Shown here: positions 3,150 to 63,640 of the stretch, in pieces
Layout of the letters: every line of letters starts with the position of its first letter
Position numbering within the stretch: the stretch's first letter is position 1
NCBI GenBank assembly: GCA_964459095.1
Contig: CAYWKL010000002.1
Coordinates: 2,858-66,857 of the forward strand
Reading direction: 5' to 3'
Source of the DNA: an uncultured Gammaproteobacteria bacterium
Lineage (GTDB): Bacteria > Patescibacteriota > Microgenomatia > Daviesbacterales > UBA10151
DNA: 64,000 nt
Program-made: the position numbers and the translations under genes
The notes under the pieces: generated by a model
Databases searched by the model: none
Told to the model about the DNA's origin: nothing
What the model saw: the letters and a program-made list of their open reading frames with translations, nothing else

Positions 3150-3980
3150 ATGGAAGAACTAAAAACATTCGAGCAGGTCATAGGGATACAGAGATATAGC
3201 AACTCAACAAAGAGGATTTATAGGTTTCATATTAAAAACTTCTTGATATTTTGTAGAGGCAAGCCTGCCCAAGATAAAATTTTGGAGTATTTATTCAACC
3301 TGGAAAGGTACAAACCATCATCGCTGAACATAGCAAAATACAGCATAATTTACTTTTTCAGAAATATTATGAATCAGGAGATAATTACCAAAATACCTAA
3401 AATAAAAAGGGAAAAATTATTGCCAAAAACGATTGATAGTGATGCGATAATGAAGATGGTAAACATAACTTCCAACCTCAAGCATAAAATATTGATAGAG
3501 CTTTTGTACAGTAGTGGGTTAAGATTGGGAGAGGTTAATAAAGTACAATGGACTGATTTAGATTTCAAGAACAGATTAATCTTTGTAAAGGGCAAAGGCA
3601 ACAAAGAAAGGTATACCAAGCTATCTGAAAGAGTTATTGGTGATTTGATGAAATATAAAGAAGTGAGGAATGCTAAGGGAGATAACAAAAACCCCTATGT
3701 GTTTGATAGTGAGCAAAGACCAGAAACCCATATATCCAAAAAGACAGTTCAGAAAGTTTTGGAGAATGCTGCAAGAAAACTGAATTTGGATGTTAGGGTG
3801 TCACCCCATAAGATAAGGCATTCTTTTGCAACTCATAGTTTAGAGAATGGAATTGATAGTAGGTTTATTCAGAAGATGCTGGGACATTCAAGCTCAAGAA
3901 CAACAGAGATTTACACACAAGTTACAAGAAATAGTCTGAAGAACATTGAAAGTCCTTTGGATGTTGCTTGCAGAGTGTAG
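3150..3980 (+). CDS. Tyrosine recombinase/integrase (XerC/D-like).
   Basis: Catalytic R (SGLRLGEV), HKIRHSFAT (HxxR), GHSSSRTTEIYTQV (catalytic Tyr). Confidence 0.85.
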   Translation: MEELKTFEQVIGIQRYSNSTKRIYRFHIKNFLIFCRGKPAQDKILEYLFNLERYKPSSLNIAKYSIIYFFRNIMNQEIITKIPKIKREKLLPKTIDSDAIMKMVNITSNLKHKILIELLYSSGLRLGEVNKVQWTDLDFKNRLIFVKGKGNKERYTKLSERVIGDLMKYKEVRNAKGDNKNPYVFDSEQRPETHISKKTVQKVLENAARKLNLDVRVSPHKIRHSFATHSLENGIDSRFIQKMLGHSSSRTTEIYTQVTRNSLKNIESPLDVACRV

Positions 3981-4559: not shown

Positions 4560-4754
4560 GTGATAAGCATCAGTGAAGAGTTTGTTGATTTCATTGCTTT
4601 CTTGGATGATAATGAGGAAAAGAGAGAGTGGTATGTAAAGATAATTGAAGCCAGCCACTTTGTAACATTCATAACCAAGGACGGAAATACTGTTTCTATA
4701 CCCTCAAGCAGGGTTTTGAAGATAAAAAAGAGGAGAGTTGCTTCAGATGATTAG
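4560..4754 (+). CDS. Hypothetical small acidic protein overlapping the MCM start.
   Basis: ORF track only. Confidence 0.3.
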   Translation: MISISEEFVDFIAFLDDNEEKREWYVKIIEASHFVTFITKDGNTVSIPSSRVLKIKKRRVASDD

Positions 4755-32815: not shown

Positions 32816-33262
32816 TCAGCATCTTATCATAAACACGTTCCAGCCAAATATACTCCAATATACTTTCCTGCATTTCTTCGGATATTCAATATAACTCAGA
32901 TTCTTATAATCATCCAATTCAGTCCATGTATCATTTTCTGGATTATAAGCGAGATGGCAGCTTCCCCTGCAAGTGATGTTCCAGTTATAACTATAATCAC
33001 ATCTTCTAATAGTGGAGTTTGAAATAAATGTGTTGTTAAACCAAAAAGATGCATTGTTAAATAAGAGTATACTATCGTTTGCACTAAAGTTGAAAAGGCT
33101 TTGATTAATTGTGCCATTATCAGAACAACCATAATCATCTAAAGCTGATGTGAATTTTGAAGCATTGCATAATGCAAAATTGTATAATGCAAAATTACTT
33201 TCTGCTATAATTAAAGGCAATGAGATTAGCATAATTATTCCCAATATTAAATATTTCATCAT
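32816..33262 (-). CDS. Secreted Cys-rich N-glycosylated protein.
   Basis: ORF track. Signal peptide and many NxS/T sequons. Confidence 0.5.
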   Translation of the reverse strand: MMKYLILGIIMLISLPLIIAESNFALYNFALCNASKFTSALDDYGCSDNGTINQSLFNFSANDSILLFNNASFWFNNTFISNSTIRRCDYSYNWNITCRGSCHLAYNPENDTWTELDDYKNLSYIEYPKKCRKVYWSIFGWNVFMIRC

Positions 33263-33357: not shown

Positions 33358-33762
33358 TCATCTTCTCACCAGTACTATTTCATCATTTTCTTTGAGCTTG
33401 TGCTTATCCAGATTATTCTTTAAACAAGTTGCACTTGAGCATTGTTTGCCTCTCTGACAATAATCACAATTTACTTCACTCACTTTCTTTATCTCATAGT
33501 CTTTGAAGGGGATTTTATAGCCTGTGCCATCACATCTTTTACAGTCTGATACATCTTCATAATAGATGGGTATCCTATTTTTATCATATGCTTTAACATG
33601 AATTAAACAATCGCATTTCTCAAGATTCCTCAATGGATAGATGTGTATTATTTGCTGTCCTTTACCCACACATTTATAACACTCAAAAAACTTTTTATGA
33701 CCTGTTCCATCACATTCTTCACACTTCTGCTTTATTGTTAGAATTAATTTTGGCTGTTTCAT
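33358..33762 (-). CDS. DnaJ-type zinc-finger (CxxCxGxG x3-4) protein.
   Basis: CEECDGTG, CYKCVGKG, CKRCDGTG motifs. Confidence 0.5.
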   Translation of the reverse strand: MKQPKLILTIKQKCEECDGTGHKKFFECYKCVGKGQQIIHIYPLRNLEKCDCLIHVKAYDKNRIPIYYEDVSDCKRCDGTGYKIPFKDYEIKKVSEVNCDYCQRGKQCSSATCLKNNLDKHKLKENDEIVLVRR

Positions 33763-34067
33763 CTTATCCTGTCACACAAGTCTTTCATAGTCATATTGAT
33801 TGTGTAATTGCCATAGTCCAAACTTAAATTCATATTTGAGCAGGATATTATTATTCTTGGCTCATACTTTATGTCTGCTGTTGTAAATTGGCTGTCATTT
33901 AGAGTTGAATTGCCCATAAAATATTGTGCGCTGTCGTTTAGAGTTGAGTTTGCTATTCTATTACTTATTTCAAGATATGAGCATCCACTTATCAAAATCA
34001 AAATTCCGATTATAATTGGGAGTTGTTTCATCTTAGTCACAAAACTTGCACGATTCATTGCTATCAA
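33759..34067 (-). CDS. Small lipoprotein or secreted protein.
   Basis: ORF track. Confidence 0.4.
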   Translation of the reverse strand: MIAMNRASFVTKMKQLPIIIGILILISGCSYLEISNRIANSTLNDSAQYFMGNSTLNDSQFTTADIKYEPRIIISCSNMNLSLDYGNYTINMTMKDLCDRIR

Positions 34068-34431
34068 TAGTCAAGTCATGCCCTTCACATTCATCGTACT
34101 TTTCCTTCTCTTTCTGGAGTTTTTTCTGTATCTTAAAATAGTAATCAACATAATTTTCAATTTTTAATATCTCCTCCGCAAGCTGCTTTCTGCCTTCTTT
34201 GATGCCTTCAGCTTTGTATTTTCTTAATTTAATTAATACATCATTAACATAAGTATCCTCGAGTTCTTCTAAATTTAATATAAAAGATAAAAGGAATATT
34301 TCTTCTTTAGTTGATTTTTTGAGTATCTTGATTATATCTTTATTTATATTTGAAATGTTTAATTGATTATTCCTAAGAATCCTTGTAACCATATTATCAG
34401 TTATTTTCTCAATAATTTCTTTGTCGTTCAT
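34033..34431 (-). CDS. Hypothetical. Paralog of 34522..34932 (shared NDKEIIEKI N-terminus and RKQxAEEI region).
   Basis: Paralogy visible in the sequence. Confidence 0.5.
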   Translation of the reverse strand: MNDKEIIEKITDNMVTRILRNNQLNISNINKDIIKILKKSTKEEIFLLSFILNLEELEDTYVNDVLIKLRKYKAEGIKEGRKQLAEEILKIENYVDYYFKIQKKLQKEKEKYDECEGHDLTIDSNESCKFCD

Positions 34432-34521: not shown

Positions 34522-34932
34522 TTAATATATCCTCTTTGCTCTTGTTTTGCACCAGCACATTGAGCCTTCGCATCTTTCGTCATGAGGATAATAATACGCT
34601 TCAAAAATGTAAGTAATTTGTTTTTCTCCTTCGCCTTCTTTAAAGAATCCTTTTTCTTTTATTTCCTCTGCAAATTGCTTTCTGCCTTGTAGTTTGGATT
34701 GTTCAACAATTTTCTTTAATTGTGCTTGTGTTATAGTTCCAGCTTCCAATAATGCTTTCTGCTTTCCTTGTTCAATACCTTTTTCAATTCCCAATACAAC
34801 TTTATCATTGATGGGGTAGCCATCTGGAATTTCAGCCATAATTTCTTTTAATATTTTCTCAATGATTTCTTTGTCGTTCAATTTACTCACCCAATATTTG
34901 CTCAAAAATACAGACTGCTTCTTCTTCGTCAT
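34522..34932 (-). CDS. Hypothetical. Paralog of 34033..34431, with a C-terminal Cys/His cluster.
   Basis: Paralogy visible in the sequence. Confidence 0.5.
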   Translation of the reverse strand: MTKKKQSVFLSKYWVSKLNDKEIIEKILKEIMAEIPDGYPINDKVVLGIEKGIEQGKQKALLEAGTITQAQLKKIVEQSKLQGRKQFAEEIKEKGFFKEGEGEKQITYIFEAYYYPHDERCEGSMCWCKTRAKRIY

Positions 34933-35292: not shown

Positions 35293-35402
35293 ACTTTCTT
35301 TTATAACTCATTTTTGAAAGGTCTTTATCTGTATATCCTTTTGTTTTTAATACATCATCCGCATTCATTTTGAAAACCTCATTGAACATAATGTTCCCGA
35401 TT

Positions 35403-35708
35403 TCAAGAATGTTTTAATTTAGGCGAAGCCGTCTTGAAACCGCTTTTGGTGGTGCCAAAAACCGAAGGTTTTTTAGCATCGGAATTATCGGCAGTCGCCC
35501 TATCATCATTAACTAATCTCATTATTAAATAAAGTATAAATGCAAAAGGGAGGATTCCAGAGAAAACTCCGAGTAAAACATCTTTATTTCTTGCACCTAA
35601 AAAATACCAAGATATTGCCATAAAATTAGTTATTATCATAGCAATAAATACTATTCTGAAATATAAATCTCTATATTCTTTTTGTTGTATGTACAATATA
35701 TTTGTCAT
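35403..35708 (-). CDS. Small two-TM protein. Its last ~16 codons are encoded by the 51-nt repeat copy 1.
   Basis: ORF track. Confidence 0.45.
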   Translation of the reverse strand: MTNILYIQQKEYRDLYFRIVFIAMIITNFMAISWYFLGARNKDVLLGVFSGILPFAFILYLIMRLVNDDRATADNSDAKKPSVFGTTKSGFKTASPKLKHS

Positions 35709-35745
35709 TTTTTACCTCGTTGGCGATTGCCGATAATGTATAATT

Positions 35746-36015
35746 TCACGAAGATTTGTCAACAATATCTAATAATATCTCTTTCCTTTTTATTCCACAG
35801 CCATCGCAGTACATATCATTGCCATATTGACTAAATTTTTTATGTTGACAAACTTTGGGCGAATCGGGATGAGCCGTGAAATTATTATTATGAGAAGGTT
35901 TGAGGTTCTCTTCTCTTTCTGCATTTTCATTATAGATTAAATTAATTTCCCTTGTGATGATTTTCAACGCATCACGAATTCTATTTATTTTATTTCTTAA
36001 TTGTTTATCTTCCAT
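35746..36015 (-). CDS. Small Zn-ribbon protein with an NNFTAHPDSPKVC core. Paralog of 44344..44637.
   Basis: Shared 41-nt near-identical core. Confidence 0.5.
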   Translation of the reverse strand: MEDKQLRNKINRIRDALKIITREINLIYNENAEREENLKPSHNNNFTAHPDSPKVCQHKKFSQYGNDMYCDGCGIKRKEILLDIVDKSS

Positions 36016-36086
36016 TTTGAAAACCTCAAAACTTTTGTTTAATGTATATGGTTAAAAAATCAGCGTGATATCATTTTATACAATTT

Positions 36087-36497
36087 TTATGTTTCTCCTT
36101 GATTGTTAGGATTGGTTTTGTCTATTTCATCTTTAAGCTTGTACAGCAGCAATTCAAATTCTTTGGCGGTATACCTTTTCTTAAATTCCTTGTTGTATGC
36201 TTCTTTCTGGCCGTATACATATTCCGGATTTTTTTCAATCTTTTCTATTGCTAATTTCAGGAATTCTTTCTCCGGCTCGGTAAGTGCGCTGCGGCTGTAG
36301 AAAGGATTGCTTTCTAATAACTCATCAATGTGCTTTATTTTTAGCAGGAGCCTCTCCCTTTCTGCCAGTATAAACTCCTTGGACAGGTAATCGGAGTTTA
36401 TGTAATTTCTGATTTTGTCTGTTGTGTTTTTCCCCTCCATTGCGCTGTCTATCCTGTCGATTATATCGTCTGGGATTTCGATGTGTATCATTACCAT
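36087..36497 (-). CDS. Putative ribbon-helix-helix (CopG/Arc-like) DNA-binding protein (N-terminal IHIEIPDDIIDRIDSA beta-strand) with an alpha-helical extension. First gene read out of the origin-like region.
   Basis: Motif resemblance. Confidence 0.35.
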   Translation of the reverse strand: MVMIHIEIPDDIIDRIDSAMEGKNTTDKIRNYINSDYLSKEFILAERERLLLKIKHIDELLESNPFYSRSALTEPEKEFLKLAIEKIEKNPEYVYGQKEAYNKEFKKRYTAKEFELLLYKLKDEIDKTNPNNQGET

Positions 36498-36861
36498 TTT
36501 ATATCACCAAATATAAGTAATACGAGCTTATTTATATGGTTTTCTATTTAATATTAAAACGTATGATATTTGGGTGTAATATATATAAATAGGGAATATT
36601 AGGGATATATTATATATTTCATTAATTATTTTATATATTGAAAATATGTAGTAAATTGTTGTTGTGTAATATTATTTTGTTTATTGTATATATTGAAATT
36701 ATATGATTAATATAAAAAATTTCATAGTGCCTAACCATTTTCTCACTCGTAAATTTTACATAAATTTTACCTTTAAGTTACTCATAAAAAAATTGAATAC
36801 ACCCCATCGTTTCCACTGGAATGTAGGAAAATAAATGTTTTGACGACGATAACACTCCCAT

Positions 36862-36891
36862 TTCCTATGGAAAAATAAAAAAGGGAGGGGG
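36862..36891 (+). repeat. ORB-like element 1: dyad ttcctatggaa plus 10-nt spacer plus G-string gggaggggg.
   Basis: Seen in the sequence. Resembles the archaeal origin recognition box architecture. Confidence 0.45.
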
Positions 36892-37071
36892 TCCCTGAAA
36901 TTAAAAATATATATATTTCCTATACTATCTGTTTGTATAAAATATTAAAATGTATGTTGTGTGGTTTAAAGTTATATATAATATTAAAAATATATTATAT
37001 ATTAAAAAATACCATATAGTTAGGTATTACATAATTAATATAAGATATATATATATTTTTGTTTTTTTGTA

Positions 37072-37099
37072 CCCCCCTCCAAATTGCGTTCCAGTGGAA
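37072..37099 (-). repeat. ORB-like element 2 (inverted): G-string cccccctcc plus 8-nt spacer plus dyad ttccagtggaa.
   Basis: Seen in the sequence. Inverted relative to element 1 across the AT-rich core. Confidence 0.45.
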
Positions 37100-37305
37100 A
37101 TGAACGTAGCGGTCGTTAGGCTGTACAATTTACTCACTACCCTTTAAGCTCTACTTCCACTGGAACACGAGTGAAATTTAGTATGTATTTATATACTATT
37201 AAAATCAAAAAAACACATATGTTTCCTATGGAATATTTGATATAGGAAAATATAAACAACATTCTAAACTATTAAAAATATATTATATATTATTTAATAA
37301 ACACA

Positions 37306-37920
37306 CTATTCTATCCTCTCTATCATACCATTCTTATGGTGTATGACACAACCTCTATAACTTAATATCTTCATTGGCCAATAAAAATACTGAAGATAAT
37401 CATGGCGCGAACCAAAGAATTTGTCAAACTGAAATGTTCCAGAATCCCTGTTAAACCGCGTTATACCTAACTCCCTGCAGATATTCTCGGCCACTGTTGA
37501 TGTTCTTACCTTTCTACCTAAAGGCTGCCTTAAAACCACATTCTTCCATATTCTTCCAACAAGCACCTTGTCTACGTTATGCTTAAACTCTTTTACGCTA
37601 ATTTCACCAGTCTCCGGGTCCTCAACTTTTCTATGCTCAGTTACCTGGTAAATCTTTGGAAATTCCCTGATATCCTTGAAGTCAATACCTTTGAACGGCT
37701 GCGTTGCGACTTCTTGCTTCTTAAAGTCTTCCCGCAATCCGGGAACCTCTACAGTGCCGACAATGGCTTCTACCTTTTCAATGTCCGAGTACTTAAACAC
37801 CCATAAATAACCTTTTGAATAATAGTCATATATTGGATTAACAATCGTTAACTTCATCAATGGCTCATACTCTGTTCTAAGGTATTTCAACCTTATCCCA
37901 AAATACAGTTCTGATTTCAT
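37306..37920 (-). CDS. Hypothetical 204-aa protein directly flanking the origin-like region.
   Basis: ORF track. Confidence 0.5.
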   Translation of the reverse strand: MKSELYFGIRLKYLRTEYEPLMKLTIVNPIYDYYSKGYLWVFKYSDIEKVEAIVGTVEVPGLREDFKKQEVATQPFKGIDFKDIREFPKIYQVTEHRKVEDPETGEISVKEFKHNVDKVLVGRIWKNVVLRQPLGRKVRTSTVAENICRELGITRFNRDSGTFQFDKFFGSRHDYLQYFYWPMKILSYRGCVIHHKNGMIERIE

Positions 37921-38120
37921 ATTACCTTAGAAATAAATTTCAATATTTTCCACTTTCTAATCATAATTAATGGTATAACATTCTTTGGTCCAGCGTAGCT
38001 TGGAATCACCTTTTCTTTTTTCCATCGTTGAATAATTTTCTCTATATCCCTCCTTATCAATTCATTTTCAATTTTACGTTGTTCAAACATCTCAATCACT
38101 TCCATTCTTATACAACTCAT
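37917..38120 (-). CDS. Hypothetical small protein.
   Basis: ORF track. Confidence 0.35.
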   Translation of the reverse strand: MSCIRMEVIEMFEQRKIENELIRRDIEKIIQRWKKEKVIPSYAGPKNVIPLIMIRKWKILKFISKVI

Positions 38121-38421
38121 TCAACTCAGTATGACATCCATCACACAAAGGCACAAACACATTGTATTTTGCCTTAAGCATGTTTGGCAGCGAATGGTGG
38201 GAAGTTATCTGCTTCTCAAATATCTTTCCACACCTAAAGCAAAGGTTTCCCAATATATGTATGTTTGTTCCGTTTATCTTAAAGTGAATGTGGTTTACAA
38301 GATGTTCAAGCTCTGTGGCAAAGGATTTGCGCATAACATACTCCTCGCCGTTAATCATCACTTTGTAAGTATTGATAAAATGTATATCCTTGATTTTAGG
38401 CTGCTCCATCACCCACCTCAT
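38092..38421 (-). CDS. Zn-ribbon protein (CFRCG...CDGCH).
   Basis: ORF track. Confidence 0.45.
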   Translation of the reverse strand: MRWVMEQPKIKDIHFINTYKVMINGEEYVMRKSFATELEHLVNHIHFKINGTNIHILGNLCFRCGKIFEKQITSHHSLPNMLKAKYNVFVPLCDGCHTELNELYKNGSD

Positions 38422-38585
38422 TAAACCTTCACACAGGGTTTATTTGATTTTCAATTATAATCATCATAGCTATAACTAAAAACAAAACAAACCAAATCAA
38501 TTTCATTGTCCTGTCCCCTTTTGATTTATCCCATAAGGTAGACACCATCCCAATAATGCTTACCATCAAAATCCCAAATTGTAAG

Positions 38586-38948
38586 TCACTCATTTTTCAC
38601 CTCCACATCTCTCAATGTCCATAACTTCCCCTTACCCTTATTGCCTACCTTCCTCCATCCCCACACAGAAATCTTACCGCCGGCTTTTACCCATGTCTTG
38701 GCATTATTGTTTTCTTTAATCTTAGCAACTCTTGCTGCAACATTGCCGCCATCTCCAGTAGTGGCTTGCACAATCAAAAACTCCATCCTCTCCGAATGAA
38801 CAGCCAAAATGTCTCCGAAAGAAAAGAGGTCCTGCCGGATTTTTACCCAGGGATTAAACTTCTCAACTACTGCCACCATGTAGCCGCGCTTCCTCAACTC
38901 CTTCAAGCTCAATGCAGTCGGGCTTATTCTTTTAGTTTTCTTTGTCAT
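38586..38948 (-). CDS. Possible Hjc/resolvase-like PD-(D/E)xK-fold protein (RGYMVAVVEK...DLFSFGDILAV...FLIVQATT). The catalytic E-x-K is not conserved, so this is tentative.
   Basis: Loose motif resemblance. Confidence 0.25.
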   Translation of the reverse strand: MTKKTKRISPTALSLKELRKRGYMVAVVEKFNPWVKIRQDLFSFGDILAVHSERMEFLIVQATTGDGGNVAARVAKIKENNNAKTWVKAGGKISVWGWRKVGNKGKGKLWTLRDVEVKNE

Positions 38949-38958
38949 TCTACTTTTC

Positions 38959-39219
38959 TCAAATAAACTTCAGGTCGGGAAAAGTCTCATCAATTATAAT
39001 TTTAAATTTATGAATTTTATTTTCATATACTACTCTTTCTCCTCTTTCCCATGATTTAACATTTTCAACTATAAGCATATCAACTCTTTCTTTCAGCCTT
39101 TCAACTGCTAGCTTAACTGAATTAATAGCAAAGTACATATCACAATCTTCAAAATGTTTACCATCTATGTGTGGTCTTCCATCAAAACATTCAATTTTAT
39201 TCTTTAATGATTTATTCAT
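38959..39219 (-). CDS. Hypothetical small protein.
   Basis: ORF track. Confidence 0.4.
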   Translation of the reverse strand: MNKSLKNKIECFDGRPHIDGKHFEDCDMYFAINSVKLAVERLKERVDMLIVENVKSWERGERVVYENKIHKFKIIIDETFPDLKFI

Positions 39220-39301
39220 TTTTATCCTCCCACCTCACCAGTTCATCTTCCCCTCATACTTTGTATTGCAGTTCCTGCAGTAATAATTCCCGTTCAGCCC
39301 G

Positions 39302-39520
39302 TCAATCTTGAAGTTGTGTTTCTTGCACTTCTTGCAAGTTCTCTTTGGATAATTTGCCATCCTGCCCCCCTTCAAACATACTTTTCACTTTCACAACTAT
39401 CCCTTTTGCAGACTTCAATGAAGCCTTGTAATATTCATAGGACAGTTTTGGCTCTGTTATAAAAGTTGAAATAACAATCAGCACCAGCACAATCATTAAA
39501 ATGTTTTGGATTAATCCCAT
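39302..39520 (-). CDS. Small single-TM protein.
   Basis: ORF track. Confidence 0.4.
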   Translation of the reverse strand: MGLIQNILMIVLVLIVISTFITEPKLSYEYYKASLKSAKGIVVKVKSMFEGGQDGKLSKENLQEVQETQLQD

Positions 39521-39535
39521 GATTATTCATCCCCC

Positions 39536-39886
39536 TCAATGTATGGCAATCTTAATGCCGTCATATCTCTCTGTTTTTGGCTTTGCTTTGCAATTCAAGG
39601 TTGTGCCATCAAAACTATCAAAATCTTTCTTATATCTTTCTTCGCAGATTGCCTGCCCTAATTTGATGTAGTGTACAGGATTATCATCAAATGTATGACT
39701 TTCTTTTTTATTACCATAGCATTGCCAATCACACCACCCTTTCCCATTATCACAAACTGAACTCACATCGTAATAACCCTGGCTCAAACAATATTGACTC
39801 TTAATATCCTCTCTACCAGGTCTTACTGCACAAGCACTTAGTAGTAACAAACTTAATACCCCCACCAACAATATTATCCTTTTCAC
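39536..39886 (-). CDS. Cys-rich lipoprotein (LLLSAC).
   Basis: ORF track. Confidence 0.5.
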   Translation of the reverse strand: MKRIILLVGVLSLLLLSACAVRPGREDIKSQYCLSQGYYDVSSVCDNGKGWCDWQCYGNKKESHTFDDNPVHYIKLGQAICEERYKKDFDSFDGTTLNCKAKPKTERYDGIKIAIH

Positions 39887-40211
39887 TCTTAGTCACCTCC
39901 AAATTTTTATTTAATCTCCCTGCACTTTTCATCATGGTAATAAGCTTTGTATGCCCTCCCTTCCCATGATTTAAAAATATAGATGCAGGAGCTTTCCTTC
40001 TCTATCCACTGCCCACACCCTATACATTTCTTTGGCTTTGTTATATTGTTTAGACTATACACCTTTTTCATAATTCTCTTACCTCAAAATCCCCCTTGCT
40101 TAAATCCATCTTCTTTCTTATGTCCTTCAGGAAATACTCCTTTTCAATCAAGTCATTGAATTGCATCACCACCAGTCTGCCGTCGTGTATTAATTTCATC
40201 TTTCCCAAAAA

Positions 40212-40457
40212 TTAAATAATATCAATCTGTTCTTTCTTAAACGGAATGACTATAGGCTCCTGCAGTTCTTCCTGTATCGGGGCTACCCAATTCTCACTAA
40301 GCAGCCTTCTGAACCCATCCAGCATCCCGTCGATATCACTCAGCAGGATGTCAATGCCGGATATATCCTTGGATTTTCTTAAAGCATACTCCATTATCCT
40401 GGCCTCTTTCAGGCTCAATCCCACATTCAAATTTACACTGCCATTTTCTATTTCCAT
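40212..40457 (-). CDS. Hypothetical small protein.
   Basis: ORF track. Confidence 0.4.
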   Translation of the reverse strand: MEIENGSVNLNVGLSLKEARIMEYALRKSKDISGIDILLSDIDGMLDGFRRLLSENWVAPIQEELQEPIVIPFKKEQIDII

Positions 40458-40493
40458 TTTCCTACCTCCTTATCCATACACATCTTCTAGATA

Positions 40494-40712
40494 TTATCTC
40501 TCCCACTGCCCCTTGGCAGGTTCTCCTACTACTTTATTATTATTTATCCAAATCTTATAGTTTGTACCCATATAATACATAATAACAAATAGAAGTACTA
40601 TTGATATAAGGGATTCCACCAAATCATACCAATTGCCGGTAACCCCAATATACAGCAACACGAGACTACCAACTACCCACACAATATTTATCTGCTGGAT
40701 TTTGTTTATCAT
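40494..40712 (-). CDS. Small two-TM protein.
   Basis: ORF track. Confidence 0.4.
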   Translation of the reverse strand: MINKIQQINIVWVVGSLVLLYIGVTGNWYDLVESLISIVLLFVIMYYMGTNYKIWINNNKVVGEPAKGQWER

Positions 40713-40894
40713 CTTTCCCTCCTCTTATAATTTGCTGGAGGAACATTAAGGTTCACCCAGTATCCTTTCTTCTTAAGCATCTCAACGCAATCCTCTGTAG
40801 TCAGTTCTTTGTTCTTCCTAAAACCACCATACCATCTATCAACATATGCCCCAGCCAAAAATCCAATTCCCAATCCTGCAATAAACCAAGTCAC
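40709..40894 (-). CDS. Small single-TM protein.
   Basis: ORF track. Confidence 0.4.
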   Translation of the reverse strand: MTWFIAGLGIGFLAGAYVDRWYGGFRKNKELTTEDCVEMLKKKGYWVNLNVPPANYKRRER

Positions 40895-41363
40895 ATCAAA
40901 TCACCTCATAAAAGACATAACTATAGTTACTAATAAAAACAAACAGATATCTCTCCACAACAAAGTTAGCGGTTTAACTATAAGATACCCATTCCGATAA
41001 TGCCAATTCCAATCCATTTTTATACACCTTCACTCTCTTTTACATTTTCTTTTGGCTGTTCCAAACCAACAATTCCCAAATCAAATGGCCTTGCCAACCT
41101 GTTAAGGATTGATTTTGCGCTTGCTTCACTGCTCACCCTGATACTCTCAATTACCTTCCCAGTGTCAAAACCTCCTCCTGAATCACTTCCAACAAATACT
41201 TTCATCTCAGCTTGTTCCAATGCCCTTGCAGAGGCAACTCCAATCGCTTGCTGCATTTCAACAACTTTTTCCGCAACCAATGCCCTTATTGCCTTATCCT
41301 CAAACTTGTTTAATGCTTGCTGCAGTTTTTCCTTTGCATCCGCTTCTGCAAATCCCCTTTCCC

Positions 41364-42367
41364 TTAATGGTGAAGCATCTCCTTTGCTTTTTCTTCTGCC
41401 CTCAACCTGTCGCCTTCGCCTTCAAGCCGTTTTTGTGTTTTATTAATTTCTTCCACATCCATCCTTAAGTTTGCTTCAACAATTGACCTCTCCTTTTCTA
41501 TCTCTTGAGTTTTAACTTGCTGAACTCTAAACACCTCTAATTCTTTCTCTCTTGCCTCTTTCTGTTTTTCAGCAACTTTCATATTCTTCTCTTGTTCCCG
41601 TTTTGCAACTTCTTCATCTCGCATTATCTCCCTTTTTTTAGCCTCTTCGTCTGCTTCCGCTTCTTTGAATCTTGCAATCTTTGCCTGCTCAGCATTTTTC
41701 TGCCTTGCTTCGGAATTTATCTGCCTTTCTATTATAGATGAAATATCATGGATAACTCTTGAGTCAACCCCAAAAGAGGGGTCAGGGTCTTTAAAATCAA
41801 TTAATTCAAGACTCTTTAATTCAAGCCCCCAATTGGATATAGTCTCACTCAATATGGGATTGATTGCTTCAATTATATCCTGCCTATTATTAATTACTTC
41901 CCTTATTGCTTTCTTGGTGGTAACATCTCTCGTCGTAGACTGCACTATAACTGAAATCTGCTCATTTAATACCCTCAAATCCCCGCCAAACCTTTTTGCA
42001 GCTTCTATTGGGTCCTTGACTACTACATAAGTTATTATATCACAAACAAACCTAGCCCTATCCTTATCAAATGCCAGGAAGTTTGGAACATTAACGGGGA
42101 TAATGTTTAGTGGTATCCTATGGACCTGCATACCTAACTTAAGCATAAAAAACCAGCTTGGTATCTGAAAATAGGCGCTCTTGCCATCCGCACTATACTG
42201 CTTATGCGGCGAATATACCCTTCCTTTTCAATATAAACATCATTCCCATTGTCTATATCCTTGTAAGCACGCTCCATATCCTCTAACGTCTTAAACACAA
42301 TCTTATCCCCCTGGGTCCTTGAACCCAACGAAAAATCTTCAACTTTGTATGTTTCCATTTCATTCAC
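41364..42367 (-). pseudogene. Second SPFH/band-7 (flotillin-like, long C-terminal Glu/Lys/Ala coiled coil) gene, split into two frames. ORF 42134..42367 carries the domain start (DVYIEKEGYIRRISSIVRMARAP) and ORF 41364..42146 carries the rest. The two frames join at a T6A run (42146-42152). This is either a frameshifted pseudogene, a homopolymer sequencing error, or a programmed -1 frameshift.
   Basis: The upstream-ORF C-terminus aligns with the SPFH N-terminal strand of the intact paralog at 14443..15273 (IERGLIERLG ~ IEKEGYIRRI). Adding one T, or a -1 slip on T_TTT_TTA, fuses the frames into ...QAGFFMLKLGMQVHRIPL.... Confidence 0.55.
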
Positions 42368-42549
42368 CTCTCATAATAAAATGAATCCGTGGATGGTTCT
42401 GTATTTGTATCACTCTTCTGTTTTAGTTTCTTCTCCAACACGCTTAACATTTTATCAAATATAGTCTTGAAGGTTTCATCCAATCTATCCACCCTATACT
42501 CCAATTTTACAATTCTTTCTCTTAATTCAGTAAGTTCATCCATCTTCAA
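42364..42549 (-). CDS. Small coiled-coil protein.
   Basis: ORF track. Confidence 0.4.
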   Translation of the reverse strand: MKMDELTELRERIVKLEYRVDRLDETFKTIFDKMLSVLEKKLKQKSDTNTEPSTDSFYYER

Positions 42550-42724
42550 TCACCTCTACCTTTATCCCACCCTCTGCGCTTGCACGCAGGGCATTCTTTT
42601 GATTTGTGCTCCACTCTTGGTATCCATTCATGCCCGCACTTCCTGCATTTGTTCTTCTTCATCGACATCACCTTTGATTATGATAATCATAGCAAATATA
42701 AATAGTTTTGCTTTCCTGACAATT

Positions 42725-43210
42725 TTACGGACAATTTTTGTCCGAATTTTCTGACAATTTTTTCCTCATATCAAAAATTCTTGGGAAGAGCTTATGTTGA
42801 AAATTTTTTCTATTTTCATTAGGAGTAACAATCTCGAGGTTAACCTTCCGATTATCTAATGTATCATGATTTATATGATTTACAACCAACCCTTTAGGAG
42901 GTTTTATTATTAGACGATGCATTCTTTCTGTCTTTCCATCAATAACCGTCCTAGCATAACCTCCAGCATTACTCCATTTATACTTTTGAATCTTCTCTAT
43001 ATCCTCAACATCTATCTTTGTAACACCCACAATCTTTTGCTTGTTATCCCTTAAATAAATTTCAGCAAACTCATCATAAACATAAATATCATTTGGTGTC
43101 CAAGTATTCCTCTTTTCTTCCATACTCCAAATAATATCTAACTTATTTACATAGTTTACTATTTTGACATTCTCAGTAACAATTTTACTTGATTGAGAAT
43201 ATATCCACAT
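42725..43210 (-). CDS. HNH_3-family homing endonuclease (KYKWSNAGGYARTVIDGKTERMHRLII...VVNHINHDTLDNRKVNLEIVT).
   Basis: Strong family signature. Confidence 0.8.
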   Translation of the reverse strand: MWIYSQSSKIVTENVKIVNYVNKLDIIWSMEEKRNTWTPNDIYVYDEFAEIYLRDNKQKIVGVTKIDVEDIEKIQKYKWSNAGGYARTVIDGKTERMHRLIIKPPKGLVVNHINHDTLDNRKVNLEIVTPNENRKNFQHKLFPRIFDMRKKLSENSDKNCP

Positions 43211-43805
43211 TCTTTACTTTGGTATCCACTTCTTTGATGTACTCCATTTCAATAGATTTCTCATAATCGGGATTTATTATAAGCAGTTCATTGCGCGGCA
43301 CATCTATACTATTAATGCTTTTGTATCTCCCTTTGTAATTTAAAACAATCTCTTTCAGCTGCGAACCATTGACAAGATTGTTAACATTGATTGATTTTAT
43401 TACCCACCGCTCTATTTTGCCGCAGATGGTGCTATTGAACTCCCTTAGTGAGGGGCTGCTCAAAATAACCCAATTATTATTATGATAAACAAAATCAACA
43501 AATAGGTTTAGCTGTTCTGTATACCGGCGATTGTTTAAATTTAATTTAGATATTTCATCCAGCACAATCAGGCAATTCTTCTTGGTGGCAAGCTGCTCCA
43601 GAGAACTCACCTCATAAATTTCCTTAAAATTCTTGTTAAGCCATTCAAGGACAGGCTCCTCAAGGCCATACACATAGATGCGGACATCCTTCTTATGCTG
43701 CCTGAAATCCTTGATTAATGCTATCAAATTGTTTGTCTTTCCGCTATCCTTCTCGCCTGCCAATCCTACAATCCTACAATTTCCAAATACCTCTTTCAAT
43801 TTCAT
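43185..43805 (-). CDS. Small P-loop NTPase (Walker A GLAGEKDSGKT, Walker B LIVLDE). A packaging or partition-type ATPase is possible.
   Basis: Motifs. Confidence 0.55.
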   Translation of the reverse strand: MKLKEVFGNCRIVGLAGEKDSGKTNNLIALIKDFRQHKKDVRIYVYGLEEPVLEWLNKNFKEIYEVSSLEQLATKKNCLIVLDEISKLNLNNRRYTEQLNLFVDFVYHNNNWVILSSPSLREFNSTICGKIERWVIKSINVNNLVNGSQLKEIVLNYKGRYKSINSIDVPRNELLIINPDYEKSIEMEYIKEVDTKVKNVDIFSIK

Positions 43806-44037
43806 ACTCTTACCTCCTTAAGCTTAACATATTAATAGATTACTTACTTTTATGAGAGCGTTGTCGATGTGATTCATCTGCTTGTATATTTGTTATAAAA
43901 TATAATATCAAAAATCCATAAGTCAATGCAAAAAATAAAACAAACAAAAATTTATGGACAAAAAAACATTATATTAGTTCCTAAACTAAACATCATAATA
44001 TACTCCTTTTGTCCATCTGTTAAATATATGTTTTTAT

Positions 44038-44286
44038 TCATAATCGTTGTTTGGCGGATACCCTAGATTTTAGTCGAGTGGAGGAAACTAAACTTGAATT
44101 TACTTTGTCGCCTTTGAAGCAACCTTTAGGACAATACCTTACTGCTTCTTTATGGTTAAACTCAGTAGGGGTTTTGCAATATTTGCATTCCCTTACCCTT
44201 CCAAAAAAACCATCCATAGCACATTCTAAATTATATTCAATATCTCTTGCTCTTTTCCTTCTTAGTTTTTCTTTCTTGCTAATCAT
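44038..44286 (-). CDS. Basic Zn-ribbon protein.
   Basis: ORF track. Confidence 0.45.
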   Translation of the reverse strand: MISKKEKLRRKRARDIEYNLECAMDGFFGRVRECKYCKTPTEFNHKEAVRYCPKGCFKGDKVNSSLVSSTRLKSRVSAKQRL

Positions 44287-44343
44287 TGGAAACCTCCGAA
44301 TTTATTCGGATGGGAATTCTATTGAACATAATTGTATATAATT

Positions 44344-44637
44344 TCACGAAGGTTTGCCCGAACCTTTACCCATACACATAGCACAATAAACCCTCATACC
44401 TTTTATTATTCGTTCACCTTTACCTTTACATCGAGGGCAAACTTTGGGCGAATCGGAATGAGCTGTAAAATTATTATTCGGCGACTGAGGCGTAGCCGAA
44501 GCTTGAGGTTTTGAGAGAAAATCTTTTAATGACATCAGCCAATTATCTACATGGTCATAACTTAATCTATTCTCTTTTTCAAGCATTTCATATCTTTTAA
44601 ATGCGTCTTTTTCTTTGAAATATTTATTCCAATTCAT
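44344..44637 (-). CDS. Small protein with an NNNFTAHSDSPKVC core and DnaJ-like CxxCxGxG fingers. Paralog of 35746..36015.
   Basis: Shared 41-nt nucleotide core (44437-44477 vs 35849-35889). Confidence 0.5.
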   Translation of the reverse strand: MNWNKYFKEKDAFKRYEMLEKENRLSYDHVDNWLMSLKDFLSKPQASATPQSPNNNFTAHSDSPKVCPRCKGKGERIIKGMRVYCAMCMGKGSGKPS

Positions 44638-44662
44638 TTTCTCTCAAAACTTTTGCCTAATG

Positions 44663-44731
44663 TCAGGGTTTTACGAAGCCCTGAGCGTAGCGAAGGGTTT
44701 GGGAAAATCTGCGGATTTTCCGTAAAACCCT
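44663..44731 (-). other. GC-rich structured intergenic element made of two adjacent hairpins (tcaggg/ccctga, and a nested agggttt+ggaaaatc / gattttcc+aaaccct stem with tgcg loop). It lies between the stop of 44730..45173 and the start of 44344..44637. Terminator/attenuator or small RNA candidate.
   Basis: Perfect 6-, 7- and 8-bp complementary arms seen directly. Its GC content stands out against the surroundings. Confidence 0.4.
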
Positions 44732-45173
44732 AATCAAGCGACACCAAGTTATAGCGGTAGGTAGTGGAAACCGCCGAGCTTTGTATTTTTTCTAATTCAT
44801 CTAATTTATCCATAAGCAATAATATTGGAAATTTTCCTTTAACTTTAAAATTACAATTTAAGCCATCAATATTTTTAAGATTAAATAACTTAGGATACCA
44901 TTCTGAATTATATTTAGTAAAATTATAGGTATATTCTGTTTTCTCCTTATATTTCTCATTTACAAAATTAGCTTGGAAATCAACCCCAATAAAACCTGTG
45001 TTACAACTTCCTTCAAGTTCATAATCTGATAGTACCCCTTTCAATTTGAGTAATTCAGTTTTTGCATCCATTTCTTTTATTTTTAAAAATCCTAAAATAA
45101 TTATTGAACTAACTACCAAAATAGTGATTCCACACACAATAGATATACTCAAATAATTATTCTCTTTTTGCAT
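44730..45173 (-). CDS. Single-TM N-terminally anchored protein. The gene is bracketed by a perfect 13-bp inverted repeat (44768-44780 / 45194-45206).
   Basis: ORF track. Inverted repeat verified on the sequence. Confidence 0.5.
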   Translation of the reverse strand: MQKENNYLSISIVCGITILVVSSIIILGFLKIKEMDAKTELLKLKGVLSDYELEGSCNTGFIGVDFQANFVNEKYKEKTEYTYNFTKYNSEWYPKLFNLKNIDGLNCNFKVKGKFPILLLMDKLDELEKIQSSAVSTTYRYNLVSLD

Positions 45174-45692
45174 TTTTTTCCTCCTTTTTCGTTAGCTCGG
45201 CGGTTTATGTTTTAATATCGCTTAATGTTCCCGATTTCAAGAATGTTTTAATTTAGGCGAAGCCGTCTTGAAATCGGAATTATGCGATAGTAAACCCAAA
45301 ACCATCTATCTTAATTTTTTTATAACTTCATCTTTTCCAACTCTGAAATAATCATATCCTAAAAACTTTACATAATATCCTTCTTTATCTTCTTTTTTTA
45401 CTTTTCTTATTGCAGTAAATTGCCCATAATTTGTTGATACATGGAATTTTATCTTCATTTTTTATCATCTCCGTTTTGGGTTTATTTTGCATAAGTTCCA
45501 GTATAACGCAACTCTATTCTAAATATTTATATTGATTTTTGATATGAACCTATCCATCCATATCCTTATCAGCTTACTCCTGTCATAGCCTCTTGTATCG
45601 CATATCTTCCCAAACTTCTCCCATTGCTGCGGGTAAACTGTGATTGTTCTTGATTTAAGCTTTTCCATAGTAATTAGGTATTACACTATTAT

Positions 45693-51949: not shown

Positions 51950-52150
51950 CTATTGCTTAATAGCCGATTGATTTTTTCGGCTATTATGTTTAGTGAGATT
52001 TTCTATCTTTTGTATTGCTTCTTTTTCAATTTGACACAATTTACAATTAGGGTCATTTCCAACATGAGGAACAAACTCTTCACCTTCAGATTCATGATAA
52101 CTCTCATTCCAAAAATCCCTTAATATTTGTCTTGCTTCTTTTATGTTCAT
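51950..52150 (-). CDS. Hypothetical small protein.
   Basis: ORF track. Confidence 0.35.
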   Translation of the reverse strand: MNIKEARQILRDFWNESYHESEGEEFVPHVGNDPNCKLCQIEKEAIQKIENLTKHNSRKNQSAIKQ

Positions 52151-52985: not shown

Positions 52986-53366
52986 TCACCTCTTTAATTT
53001 TATTGAATTTGAAATATTAAAAATATATTCCACCCTTTGGCAAGTGGTATGGTCTTTCACATCACCATAAAGGATATTACTTATCTCTTCAGTAAGATTG
53101 TCGCTTGAAGTCAGATAATCTACAGTTAAATCTTCTGGGAATACATCAAGGACAACAAAATCCTTGTAGCTGTCCTTATCTCTTTCAATCCACCCATAAA
53201 ATCTTAGCCTTCTTTGTTTGTTGTAAACAGTATCAACAAACCTGTCCCAATAAACAAAATTTAAATCACTCAGGCATCTCTTAACAAAATCATACTGCTC
53301 TTTTGTAAGAATGTTCATTCCTTGACCAACTCCGGATTCTCGTAAATGTTGCCAATTACTTTCCAA
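52986..53366 (-). CDS. Hypothetical protein.
   Basis: ORF track. Confidence 0.45.
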   Translation of the reverse strand: MESNWQHLRESGVGQGMNILTKEQYDFVKRCLSDLNFVYWDRFVDTVYNKQRRLRFYGWIERDKDSYKDFVVLDVFPEDLTVDYLTSSDNLTEEISNILYGDVKDHTTCQRVEYIFNISNSIKLKR

Positions 53367-63314: not shown

Positions 63315-63640
63315 TTCATCAACTCCGGATTTTCATAAATGTTGCCGATAACCTCTCTCCAATCTAAATTTGAACCAAACATAAATTGGGGTAGCTGTCT
63401 AATATCTTCAATAACAATTTCATGCATATCTTCTCCATCATGCCTTGAGCATAACACAATATCCCCTTCATAAATCTCTTTTCCATTCTTGTCTTTGATA
63501 CCTGTGAATTGCATAACTACTCCCATAGACTCAAAAAGTTCTTTCCAGGATATCCCACTATCCATTGTTTCGATGAATGATTCCCAATCAAACATCCTTT
63601 TATCTTCTCTACCAATACCTCTAAATTTAATCTCCCTCAT
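63311..63640 (-). CDS. YopX-family phage protein (MREIKFRGIGRE ... IGNIYENPELMK).
   Basis: YopX signatures. Paralog of 53315..53683 with DNA-level similarity at the 3' end. Confidence 0.75.
   Translation of the reverse strand: MREIKFRGIGREDKRMFDWESFIETMDSGISWKELFESMGVVMQFTGIKDKNGKEIYEGDIVLCSRHDGEDMHEIVIEDIRQLPQFMFGSNLDWREVIGNIYENPELMK

Follow-up and report, generated by a model that had tools for sequence, protein, structure and literature searches.

In T4-type phages, the mobile regulatory cassettes known as PeSL, like the lambdoid morons, are stem-loop and promoter sequences that flank hypervariable small ORFs and have been proposed to drive modular gene shuffling, with PeSL cassettes acting by homologous recombination between copies within related genomes. 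Integrons are recognized by clusters of at least two attC sites lying <4 kb apart (PMC9668308), and dif-type sites consist of two 11-bp imperfect inverted arms around a 6-bp spacer (PMC2958812). For DPANN archaea and their viruses, the mechanisms of gene exchange are almost unknown, and it is on these that the element described here bears. Evaluating a 64-kb stretch of DNA (hereafter the window) together with related loci from other samples, our comparisons show that a 51-nt repeat in the window is the end of a cassette and not a terminator, and that the unit to which it belongs, a small ORF bounded by a left element (LE) and a right element (RE), is a previously undescribed kind of portable single-gene cassette. 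We lean, at slightly better than even confidence, towards the reading that the repeat is the invariant core of the RE of single-gene cassettes moved by site-specific recombination, likely by an XerA-like enzyme.

A pattern search of the window revealed exactly two matches to the 51-mer, at 35389-35439 and 45223-45273, on the same strand and with 0 mismatches, and none in any of 100 shuffles. No self-match in the window is stronger, and an unfiltered covariance-model scan returned no further RE copies within the 64 kb. An earlier note on this DNA had described two copies 9.8 kb apart, which holds, but had called them almost identical where they are fully so. Because the genes at these loci lie on the minus strand, the element is to be read as TTTCAAGACGGCTTCGCCTAAATTAAAACATTCTTGAAATCGGGAACATTA. 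Past a 39-nt insertion beside copy 1, the copies match over another 10 nt (35479-35488 = 45274-45283), such that the unit common to both comprises 61 nt. In three other runs, Logan k=31 contigs that match the window identically begin exactly with the element's last 30 or 38 nt, and since contigs that start inside an element are the signature of a graph break at a repeat, these provide independent support for it.

Two direct repeats at this distance might be taken for the attL and attR of a 9.8-kb element integrated at the end of a host gene, the repeat then being a classical att core, and such elements do possess tyrosine recombinases and usually hold one copy per mobile-element contig. We nevertheless consider this highly improbable: the larger ORFs scanned within 35440-45222 included no recombinase gene, no host target emerged from two 22-mer scans across 185,579 species genomes, whose one match, L012, is itself a mobile-element-like contig, the tail encoded by the repeat was carried by no long protein in a tail-only protein search, and copy 1 sits within an LE-ORF-RE arrangement found again at other loci with a length of 190-350 bp, which is also the size range of cassettes across the family.

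Read on the minus strand, RE spans 72 nt in the order GGCGACAGCCGATAAT-TCCGATTTCAAGA-(23-nt loop)-TCTTGAAATCGGGA-ACATTA with a 12-bp stem, and LE spans 26 nt, ACATTA^TCGGCAATCGCC-AACGAGGT-N4-7-ATG, where ^ marks the cassette border and AACGAGGT the Shine-Dalgarno sequence. The 7-bp inverted repeat reported earlier is what remains of this perfect 12-bp stem (CCGATTTCAAGA/TCTTGAAATCGG), which remains unbroken in copy 2 and in almost every copy recovered from other samples and is split in copy 1. Within copy 1, the RE core (35389..35439, minus strand) comprises the 3' portion of the 5' stem arm (TTTCAAGA), a 23-nt loop that includes the TATA-like AAATTAAAA, the 3' arm TCTTGAAATCGG with the TGA stop inside it, and the border ACATTA. 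Upstream of the core lie the 39-nt in-frame insertion of 13 codons (AKKPSVFGTTKSG; 35440..35478, minus strand), which splits the 5' arm between CCGA and TTTCAAGA, and the 5' segment of RE (GGGCGACTGCCGATAATTCCGA; 35479..35500, minus strand), which encodes ..ATADNSD and is an inverted repeat of LE. The cassette ORF (35403..35708, minus strand) encodes a predicted small protein of 101 aa with two hydrophobic segments, and its last 18 codons (plus the 13 inserted) and stop codon lie inside RE; the repeat itself contributes 11 sense codons (FKTASPKLKHS) and TGA, not the 16 final codons that had been proposed. LE (ACATTA^TCGGCAATCGCCAACGAGGT; 35714..35739, minus strand) provides both the Shine-Dalgarno sequence and the cassette's left border and is kept upstream of every cassette ORF examined, and the whole cassette runs from TCGGC... 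to ...ACATTA (35389..35733, minus strand). The extent first assigned to the unit was thus partial, as it missed the 5' 21 nt of the end-piece and the partner element upstream of the ORF.

The insertion itself had been noticed before, but not that it lies inside the element and is confined to one lineage. By comparison with P0033, an ortholog of the copy-1 ORF protein that does not have it, and with all other RE copies, from which it is likewise absent, the insertion is derived and lineage-specific, and no further copy of it was found in the window or in any fetched locus. Copy 1 is an intact LE-ORF-RE cassette that has acquired this insertion, and because its site is broken, cassette 1 is probably immobilized.

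Copy 2 (61 nt, from ATAATTCCGA to ACATTA; 45223..45283, minus strand) lies upstream of gene 44730..45173, as previously stated, and ends 49 nt before the ATG of that gene. Since LE, an ORF and the GGCGACAGCCG arm are all missing, it is an ORF-less relic, or solo RE; it is the sole RE without an LE, and no solo LE was present among the loci examined. At the shared motif ATAATT(C/G)CGATTT, copy 2 is joined to GTTTTGGGTTTACTATCGC (45284..45302, minus strand), a sequence that also occurs in L027 (7745-7780), there running into a different hairpin-containing end that likewise finishes ...ACATTA, so that copy 2 resembles a hybrid between two kinds of end.

Beyond the window, RE turned up in several groundwater metagenomes, where its identity was 92-100% in each context while the flanks are unrelated. 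In one GTDB MAG contig and five metagenome contigs it is present at 92-98% identity, with no or only weak similarity elsewhere, and three of these, like the Logan contigs, terminate inside RE, the assembly-break signature of a repeat. As the element breaks short-read assemblies of these genomes, its presence explains such contig ends. Cassette-bearing data came from SRR12113384/420/430, the ERZ12926xx Hainich assemblies, ERZ272547xx/272548xx and the ANAN16 scaffolds. The chance, raised at the outset, that the copies might not be conserved or repeated elsewhere did not materialize, since the element is conserved in many other samples. LE was present upstream of every RE with enough upstream sequence, and the distance from LE to the end of RE was 189-337 nt. 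The loci belong to viruses or mobile elements of DPANN-type archaea and, in at least one case, to a chromosomal contig, with archaeal markers that include a fused RpoA'/A'' on L023, Alba on L031 and MCM in the window. Database comparisons gave no similarity between the 33-47 kb region and GenBank phages, no match to RE+LE in phages or plasmids, and no match to the element in a first GTDB scan; RE and LE sub-patterns, like relatives of two neighboring proteins, were absent from IMG/VR, where 17-mer matches were at the level of chance. Most genes in the window and related contigs have no recognizable function.

Several simpler identities were tried and set aside. The idea of a shared terminator was abandoned, as a terminator scan returned no terminator-like site at either copy and the hairpin stem is followed by GGGAACATTA with no T-run; archaeal termination takes place at oligo-T tracts. 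Sigma-70 promoter matches were at chance level and are irrelevant for an archaeal host. A MITE does not fit, as neither terminus (TCGGCAATCG... or ...AATCGGGAACATTA) is the inverted repeat of the other, the inverted repeats are internal to RE, and a conserved ORF is carried. A DGR VR/TR pair was likewise rejected, with identical copies, no RT among the scanned proteins and single copies in other genomes. No tRNA or tmRNA was found in the window, and visual inspection of the element showed no arm geometry of a tRNA. A CRISPR-like repeat was dismissed for want of a periodic array, the second ATTAAAAC box 35-38 nt downstream having the wrong spacing. Finally, an alternative hairpin or pseudoknot within RE (GGCGAcAGCCG/CGGCTTCGCC) is disrupted by substitutions without compensation, and its GGCGAcAGCCG arm pairs better with LE.

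The ORF between LE and RE differs nearly each time. A tail-only protein search, queried with three concatenated tail variants, returned 38 proteins of 52-99 aa, and DNA hits added four more; clustered by their bodies, these 42 proteins fell into 37 unrelated families. The ORF usually runs into RE and ends in ...ATADNSDFKTASPKLKHS and a stop, such that ~18 final codons and the stop come from RE. This raises the prospect that the selected trait is the peptide, with ATADNSDFKTASPKLKHS a C-terminal tag for sorting, degradation or partner binding on many small proteins and the DNA conservation secondary. Consistent with such a tag, four of the five copies from a frame-unbiased DNA search are read in the same frame (chance ~0.045), the insertion in copy 1 keeps that frame, and changes in the early tail codons are synonymous (GCG/GCA, ACA/ACT) or conservative (S/T, D/N). 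We regard the tag as distinctly improbable all the same, because across 13 copies the final 11 sense codons vary at a single non-synonymous site (TCG/ACG) and have only one synonymous change (TCG>TCA, in L034), conservation extends 17 nt beyond the stop codon, the L008 frame enters RE differently and terminates 4 codons later, copy 2 lacks an ORF altogether, each genome has just one or two such genes, and the conservation of LE is left unaccounted for. The alternative-frame tail RRQPIIPISRRLRLN had no protein matches, a result silent on frame usage given that even an exact 16-residue match, at an estimated ~22 bits, would miss E<=10. The in-frame reading of ORFs into RE in four of five DNA-search copies is in turn left unexplained by the cassette model.

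Identical cassettes in different surroundings speak for movement of the unit. The P0008 cassette, 226 nt and 100% identical, is found with two left flanks and three right flanks, its identity beginning at ATTA^TCGGC and ending at GCATTA^. The P0011 cassette occurs in two contexts, and the right-hand break of this pair falls inside RE and not at ATTA, a position that would fit homologous exchange between REs as well. The right flank in the window, TGTTCAATGAGGTTTTCAAAATG, comes after a different cassette in L023, such that different ORFs occupy the same slot, and L012 has the same variant CATATATTA at both borders. Left flanks always end in ...ATTA, as does the right end of the cassette, and a dyad, CATT-N6-AAT, weaker than the best 11-6-11 candidates, is found at both borders; right flanks resemble the start of LE (N4-CAAT), a likeness that suggests a two-sided core site. 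Combinations of flanks could be chimeric, as these are short-read contigs sharing a 226-nt exact repeat, but each individual junction is real. Circular RE^LE junctions, tandem arrays and matched empty sites were not observed as recombination products. The mobile mini-element and recombination site suggested in the earlier note are borne out in substance, the repeat being the end of a single-ORF cassette with precise borders and varied genomic contexts.

Homologous exchange alone would suffice if RE and LE were portable regulatory signals between small genes, an RNA-stabilizing or 3'-end hairpin with a promoter and a 5'UTR with a Shine-Dalgarno sequence, that act as short homology patches for recombination between co-infecting viruses with no dedicated recombinase, as has been proposed for PeSL cassettes. 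We think this unlikely while giving it some weight, as it accommodates the P0011 break and the different ORFs in one slot in the window and L023. RE always lies between co-directional genes and in their orientation, its hairpin is combined with the TATA-like box ~25 nt before the RE end, several right flanks have a second (A/T)ATTAAAAC box, LE contains a Shine-Dalgarno sequence, and the window and other loci have further short conserved gene-end and gene-start elements in common. However, the same cassette stands between flanks that have no homology past ATTA on either side, and homologous recombination therefore cannot yield these flanks. In addition, ATTAAAAC and ACATTA show no enrichment ahead of window genes, a T-tract terminator is lacking, and an invariant 47-nt stem and loop together with an RE-LE palindrome exceed what a promoter or terminator needs.

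The borders also invite comparison with a non-autonomous IS200/IS605-type (PATE-like) single-strand transposon that inserts 3' of ATTA, ends in ATTA itself and is recognized by its RE hairpin, with a Y1 HUH transposase provided in trans. ATTA closing both the left flank and the right end of the element, the absence of terminal inverted repeats at the true termini and of a variable target-site duplication, the subterminal hairpin in RE and the fixed orientation relative to neighboring genes would all be expected of it, yet no Y1_Tnp/HUH gene appeared in the Pfam lists of ~20 contigs or among 40 scanned window proteins. LE, moreover, has no comparable hairpin, the long complementarity between RE and LE is foreign to the IS200/IS605 family, and right flanks that look like the start of LE point to a core site with two sides, and we consider this origin improbable.

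For site-specific recombination, the cassette reading that we favor, a candidate enzyme is at hand. XerA-like tyrosine recombinases were the only gene family common to the first five long contexts and accompany about half of the contexts: such genes occur in the window (3150..3980, plus strand, homologous to recombinases near cassettes in other contigs), L012, L022, L019 and L024-26, with a fragment in L013, and an Xer-family recombinase, as in Xer/dif systems, is thus available. In L024-26 the recombinase gene ends 10 nt before the cassette, other recombinases or fragments thereof lie 0.4-3.1 kb from cassettes, and the window recombinase lies 31 kb from the nearer copy; the retrieved DNA of L023, L027, L031 and L034 (4 of ~10 long contexts) contained no tyrosine recombinase. 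These recombinases scored best on the archaeal XerA model NF040815, with 198 bits for the window, 196 for L024, 159 for L022 and 123 for L012 against a cutoff of 220. To integron-integrase models, the window, L024 and L022 recombinases aligned in two pieces, skipping model positions ~188-229, and only the N-terminal piece of the L012 recombinase aligned.

In the mechanism that we propose, a cassette laid out as (ATTA^)LE with RBS-ATG-variable small ORF-RE-ACATTA^ would be moved by site-specific recombination, likely by the XerA-like tyrosine recombinase accompanying about half of the cassettes. The palindrome of RE has its outer 3' arm at the start of LE, and RE joined to LE, as in an excised circle, would form a ~27-bp imperfect palindrome with bulges and a 23-nt loop, the junction in a circle or tandem reading GAAATCGGGAACATTA^TCGGCAATCGCC. 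Once integrated, the palindrome would be split at the crossover (ATTA), like an integron attC. RE may in addition contain a TATA-like box through which the gene downstream would stay expressed once a cassette has inserted. As ssDNA, RE+LE folds at -25 kcal/mol with z = -6.2 on either strand, and the 12-bp stem alone reaches z = -4 to -4.9. A double change in L031 (G>A in the 5' and G>T in the 3' arm) retains a helix with a shifted bulge, and TGA>TGG in P0006 retains a G.U pair. The site structure is weakly supported: there is no clean dif-like duplex site, the outer 5-bp stem of the palindrome has uncompensated changes in L013, L022, L012 and L023, and covariation comes from a single cassette.

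The stable fold of the 12-bp stem and the helix-keeping changes could be read as those of a structured RNA at work in the transcript (ribozyme, riboswitch, sRNA or CRISPR-repeat mimic), and GTTTCAAGACGG...ATTAAAAC has what we take to be a loose likeness to the ends of archaeal CRISPR repeats. Such a role strikes us as barely credible, as no Rfam 15 family matched the window at gathering score or, at E<=1, the element in L007-L011, there is no array or spacer periodicity, the loop is invariant and hence offers no covariation, and both LE-RE complementarity and the cassette borders would go unexplained.

A bolder proposal, which we put forward tentatively as possible and short of probable, is that RE and LE each form one half of a new, folded attC-like site and that DPANN-type viruses, plasmid-like elements and chromosomes trade single small genes via XerA-like recombinases. 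If true, this would be a second, independently evolved "integron-like" cassette system, and one whose site standardizes expression by placing an RBS at one end and a constant C-terminal tail, a stop and possibly a promoter at the other. The fixed ends provide a search handle for the accessory gene pool of these organisms in metagenomes, the cassette is a concrete, testable substrate for archaeal Xer-like recombinases outside chromosome resolution, and a recombination site that encodes part of every cargo protein bears on how integron-type cassettes are assembled.

Among known systems, integron cassettes and their attC sites, including those of archaeal integrons (Ghaly et al. 2022, PMC9668308), resemble the LE/RE cassette in several ways: units are small, share one orientation and mostly have one ORF; an imperfect palindrome lies at the 3' end, where the last part of the ORF may run into it; and the linear form has the outer 3' arm of the palindrome at the cassette 5' end, the full site arising only after the ends are joined. 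As in integrons, an ORF is combined with an imperfect palindrome split at the crossover when integrated (here RE+LE, by its fold), a short identical core stands at both borders (ATTA here, GTT in integrons), unrelated ORFs have near-identical sites, as in chromosomal super-integrons, and a tyrosine recombinase is nearby. In contrast to integrons, no arrays are seen: all long loci have one RE per contig, the window copies are 9.8 kb apart, and RE does not form clusters of two or more sites within 4 kb. The recombinase is XerA-like, without the IntI-specific domain (around patch III), and by inspection the R''/R' consensus RYYYAAC/GTTRRRY is absent from RE, LE and the junction, which have only the off-consensus GCCAAC/GTTGGC. 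Further differences are a 5' piece of at least 20 nt that includes a Shine-Dalgarno sequence, a site that encodes a constant 18-residue C-terminal tail, and hosts that are viruses and mobile elements of DPANN-type archaea.

The pdif modules of Acinetobacter plasmids, which depend on XerC/XerD (PMC6449649, PMC13141974), are similar in being accessory-gene modules with inverted recombinase sites, shuffled between replicons and associated with the Xer family. They differ in that pdif sites are 28-bp 11-6-11 sites, whereas the cassettes have no clean or convincing 11-6-11 duplex site (the best candidates, such as TACATTATCGG-CAATCG-CCAACGAGGTA, have 7/11 symmetric positions), and in that here 16-nt bounding repeats surround a single tiny ORF with an additional invariant 12-bp hairpin and loop. 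IS200/IS605-derived PATEs resemble the cassettes in having no inverted repeats at their termini, a subterminal hairpin, a fixed adjoining tetranucleotide and a small size, but the cassettes carry an ORF, no Y1 transposase was seen, and their left end has no hairpin. With PeSL cassettes and morons, lastly, the LE/RE cassette shares short conserved stem-loop and promoter sequences around hypervariable small virus ORFs; unlike PeSL, however, identical cassettes here have non-homologous flanks, and their two ends are complementary to each other.

Pattern search found exactly two matches to the 51-mer in the window, at 35389-35439 (copy 1) and 45223-45273 (copy 2), on the same strand and with no mismatches, which bears out the earlier note that the element occurs twice and makes copies there called almost identical in fact identical. 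Shuffled sequences gave 0 matches, self-comparison placed the repeat as the top self-similarity of the 64-kb window, and a covariance model built from 13 copies and run with filters off returned just these two sites. Because long ORFs from ~32 kb to 64 kb all lie on the minus strand, with GC skew flipping at the same place, the element is to be read as its reverse complement. Directly after copy 1 lies a 39-nt insertion (35440-35478), followed by 10 more nucleotides common to copy 2. In three further sequencing runs, Logan contigs match the window identically and open precisely on the element's final 30 or 38 nt, the mark of a k=31 assembly graph breaking at a repeat. Nothing was found to suggest that the 9.8-kb stretch separating the copies is itself an insertion.

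Scanning metagenome contigs with a 22-mer yielded five contigs, and a second pattern added one GTDB MAG contig. Their alignment revealed a sharply bounded 72-nt unit, hereafter the right end (RE), which has unrelated flanks and reads, in gene orientation, (A/G)G GCGACAGCC GATAAT TCCGATTTCAAGA CGGCT(T/A)CGCCTAAATTAAAACAT TCTTGAAATCGGGA ACATTA. The inverted repeat within it pairs without mismatch over 12 bp (CCGATTTCAAGA/TCTTGAAATCGG) and encloses a 23-nt loop (folding z = -4.1 and -4.9). The 7-bp arms described earlier are real but fall short of the full stem, because the insertion in copy 1 sits within the 5' arm. Across 13 aligned copies, the 5' arm is nearly invariant (one G>A, in locus L031), as is the loop, where two positions vary (TCG/ACG, and a G>A of L034), and the first 7 nt of the 3' arm (TCTTGAA) never vary, with the rest conserved to 17 nt beyond the stop codon. 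The RE had no Rfam match, and the suggestion of a shared terminator is not upheld, as the scan showed no terminator-like site at the repeat.

Small ORFs almost always run in frame into the RE. Those of copy 1 and of loci L010, L011 and L012, unrelated to one another, enter it in one frame and end in ...ATADNSDFKTASPKLKHS, their TGA stop lying within the 3' arm, while the L008 ORF enters in a different frame and terminates four codons in. Using the tail alone as protein query returned 38 proteins of 52-99 aa which, together with four from DNA hits, have N-terminal bodies (34-81 aa) forming 37 unrelated clusters, some zinc-ribbon-like and some hydrophobic. The second-frame tail search, in which even an exact match could not pass the E-value ceiling, gave no match. 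Five orthologous pairs differ conservatively, so these ORFs are real genes. The 13 inserted residues are missing from P0033, orthologous to window gene 35403..35708, and the insertion in copy 1 is thus derived.

Each RE-terminated ORF is preceded by a start piece with a Shine-Dalgarno (LE; 35714-35739, minus strand, in the window) that reads (A)CATTA and then, across the border, TCGGCAATCGCC AACGAGGT N4-7 ATG. LE and RE are strictly paired, the sole RE without an LE being copy 2. The LE segment ATTATCGGCAATCGCC is an inverted repeat of the RE start GGCGACAGCCGATAAT, RE end plus LE start (GAAATCGGGAACATTATCGGCAATCGCC) mirrors GGCGACAGCCGATAATTCCGATTTC, and the two pieces joined end to start fold into a ~27-bp imperfect hairpin with bulges (-25 kcal/mol, z = -6.2, either strand).

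We are confident, if short of certain, that the repeat forms one end of a discrete cassette that carries a single ORF and is exchanged horizontally. The 226-nt cassette of protein P0008 is 100% identical between a setting behind unrelated sequence on the RpoA-bearing contig L023 and another, in L024-L026, 10 nt beyond the end of a XerA-like recombinase gene; it has three different downstream sequences, and in all settings identity starts at ATTA, border, TCGGC and stops at GCATTA. The P0011 cassette occurs in two contexts that break on the left after ACATTA and on the right within the RE 3' arm. Sequence beyond copy 1 (TGTTCAATGAGGTTTTCAAAATG...) trails a different cassette in L023 and partly also in L009, and in L012 one variant core, CATATATTA, is present at both left and right borders. 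There is a tendency for right flanks to look like LE over its first eight bases (N4-CAAT), such that both borders take the form CATT-N6-AAT, a sequence reading rather than a statistical result. Flank combinations at contig level may be chimeric across the repeat; each junction has contiguous-sequence support. Locus L013 also carries a ~200-nt G+C-rich repeat (8807-9099 and 10215-10417, 97-100% identical) that starts exactly at the last RE bases and brackets a DNA methyltransferase gene plus cassette, with an inverted copy in L016.

Within the window, copy 1 belongs to a complete cassette (35389-35733) comprising LE, an ORF of 101 aa with two predicted hydrophobic segments, and an RE whose 39-nt insertion keeps the frame and splits the stem; under a recombination model, such a split would inactivate the site. 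In copy 2 (45223-45283) stem and loop are intact, and the LE, ORF and GGCGACAGCCG arm are missing. The stretch ahead of copy 2 (45284-45302) is found again in L027, there leading to another hairpin-bearing end, likewise closing with ACATTA. Copy 2 therefore has the look of two end types fused at their common motif ATAATT(C/G)CGATTT, and would be a relic rather than a functional cassette. Adjoining the two RE copies are paralogous small genes (35746-36015 and 44344-44637, minus strand) with repeats at 35849-35889/44438-44478 and 36024-36045/44643-44663. Their common 41-nt patch (93% identical) codes NNNFTAHxDSPKVC and resembles the RE coding part (DNSDFKTASPKLK), and their conserved leader, ACATTA, border, (A/G)(A/G)CAAAAGTTTTGAG, also found ahead of an L022 gene (9478-9510), may represent another kind of cassette start. 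An unrelated ORF with tail ...LTKHNSRKNQSAIKQ has as its 3' end a further short conserved hairpin element at 51960-51997 (minus; CTCACTAAACATAATAGCCGAAAAAATCAATCGGCTAT), which is 91% identical in L019 (6079-6122); conservation of gene ends may be widespread in these genomes.

All-against-all ORF comparison revealed tyrosine recombinases as the one family, cassette tail aside, common to the first set of contexts: the window (3150-3980, plus strand), L012 (4366-5187), L022 (13283-14071), L019 (6908-7384, with a C-terminal fragment at 4746-4907), L013 (an N-terminal fragment) and L024-26 (the gene abutting the cassette). They score best against an archaeal XerA model. No tyrosine recombinase was found in the retrieved DNA of L023, L027, L031 and L034, the last having a serine resolvase instead, and no Y1/HUH transposase was seen in the contexts examined. 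That a Xer-like recombinase moves the cassette by acting on the palindrome at the RE-LE junction is a tentative proposal, to which we give slightly under even chances, and rivals to it we hold less probable. DNA methyltransferase genes of N6/N4 or C5 types adjoin the cassette in six independent contexts (L010, L012, L013/L016, L025, L034 and L035-L042).

Groundwater metagenomes, among them Hainich 0.1-µm filter fractions, are the source of the related contigs, which carry archaeal markers: Alba on L031, XerA-like recombinases, one protein labelled 'Nanoarchaeota archaeon' at NCBI, and RpoA' and A'' apparently fused in one ORF (L023 1-2335), a fusion that points to a cellular archaeal setting of at least one cassette. 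From these markers we infer that the window is probably a mobile element, viral or otherwise, with a DPANN-type archaeon as host. It encodes an MCM helicase with an intein (4738-8001, plus), a DUF2201 metallopeptidase/VWA protein with a LAGLIDADG intein (58894-61218, minus), HNH endonucleases, two Band_7 proteins and DUF5131; a 1136-aa protein of L031 likewise contains an intein. Most other scanned window proteins had no Pfam match, no tRNA genes were found in the window, and no relatives emerged among GenBank phages (33-47 kb of the window searched) or, for two neighbouring window proteins, in IMG/VR. Coding strand and GC-skew sign switch at ~2600 and ~32100; the genes between these points are plus-strand, those outside them minus-strand. 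About 800 nt at 36500-37300 are very AT-rich, hold no convincing ORF and contain direct repeats (36574-36618/36959-37003, 36614-36656/36669-36711, 36965-36997/37253-37285), and could be an origin or control region. Small predicted secreted/membrane proteins at 32816-33262 and 33759-34067 (minus) have unusually many N-x-S/T sequons and cysteines, and further small paralogous genes share near-identical nucleotide patches (34033-34431/34522-34932, with 34402-34430 vs 34852-34880 at 97%; 53486-53544/63458-63516, with 53327-53359 vs 63320-63352 at 88%).

Among known systems, the cassette recalls Xer-dependent dif modules, although the best 11-6-11 candidates here reach 7/11 symmetric positions and are not convincing; the PeSL regulatory cassettes of T4-type phages, although the flanks here share no homology; and IS200/IS605-derived elements, whose transposase was not found here. 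Membership of the integron family was rejected on integrase signature, attC core consensus and array criterion; against integron-integrase models, the window, L024 and L022 recombinases align in pieces that skip the IntI-specific region, and that of L012 aligns by an N-terminal piece only. Integron cassettes are nevertheless alike in geometry, an ORF plus a palindromic site split at the crossover; in both systems, too, one short core recurs at each border and unrelated ORFs carry nearly identical sites.
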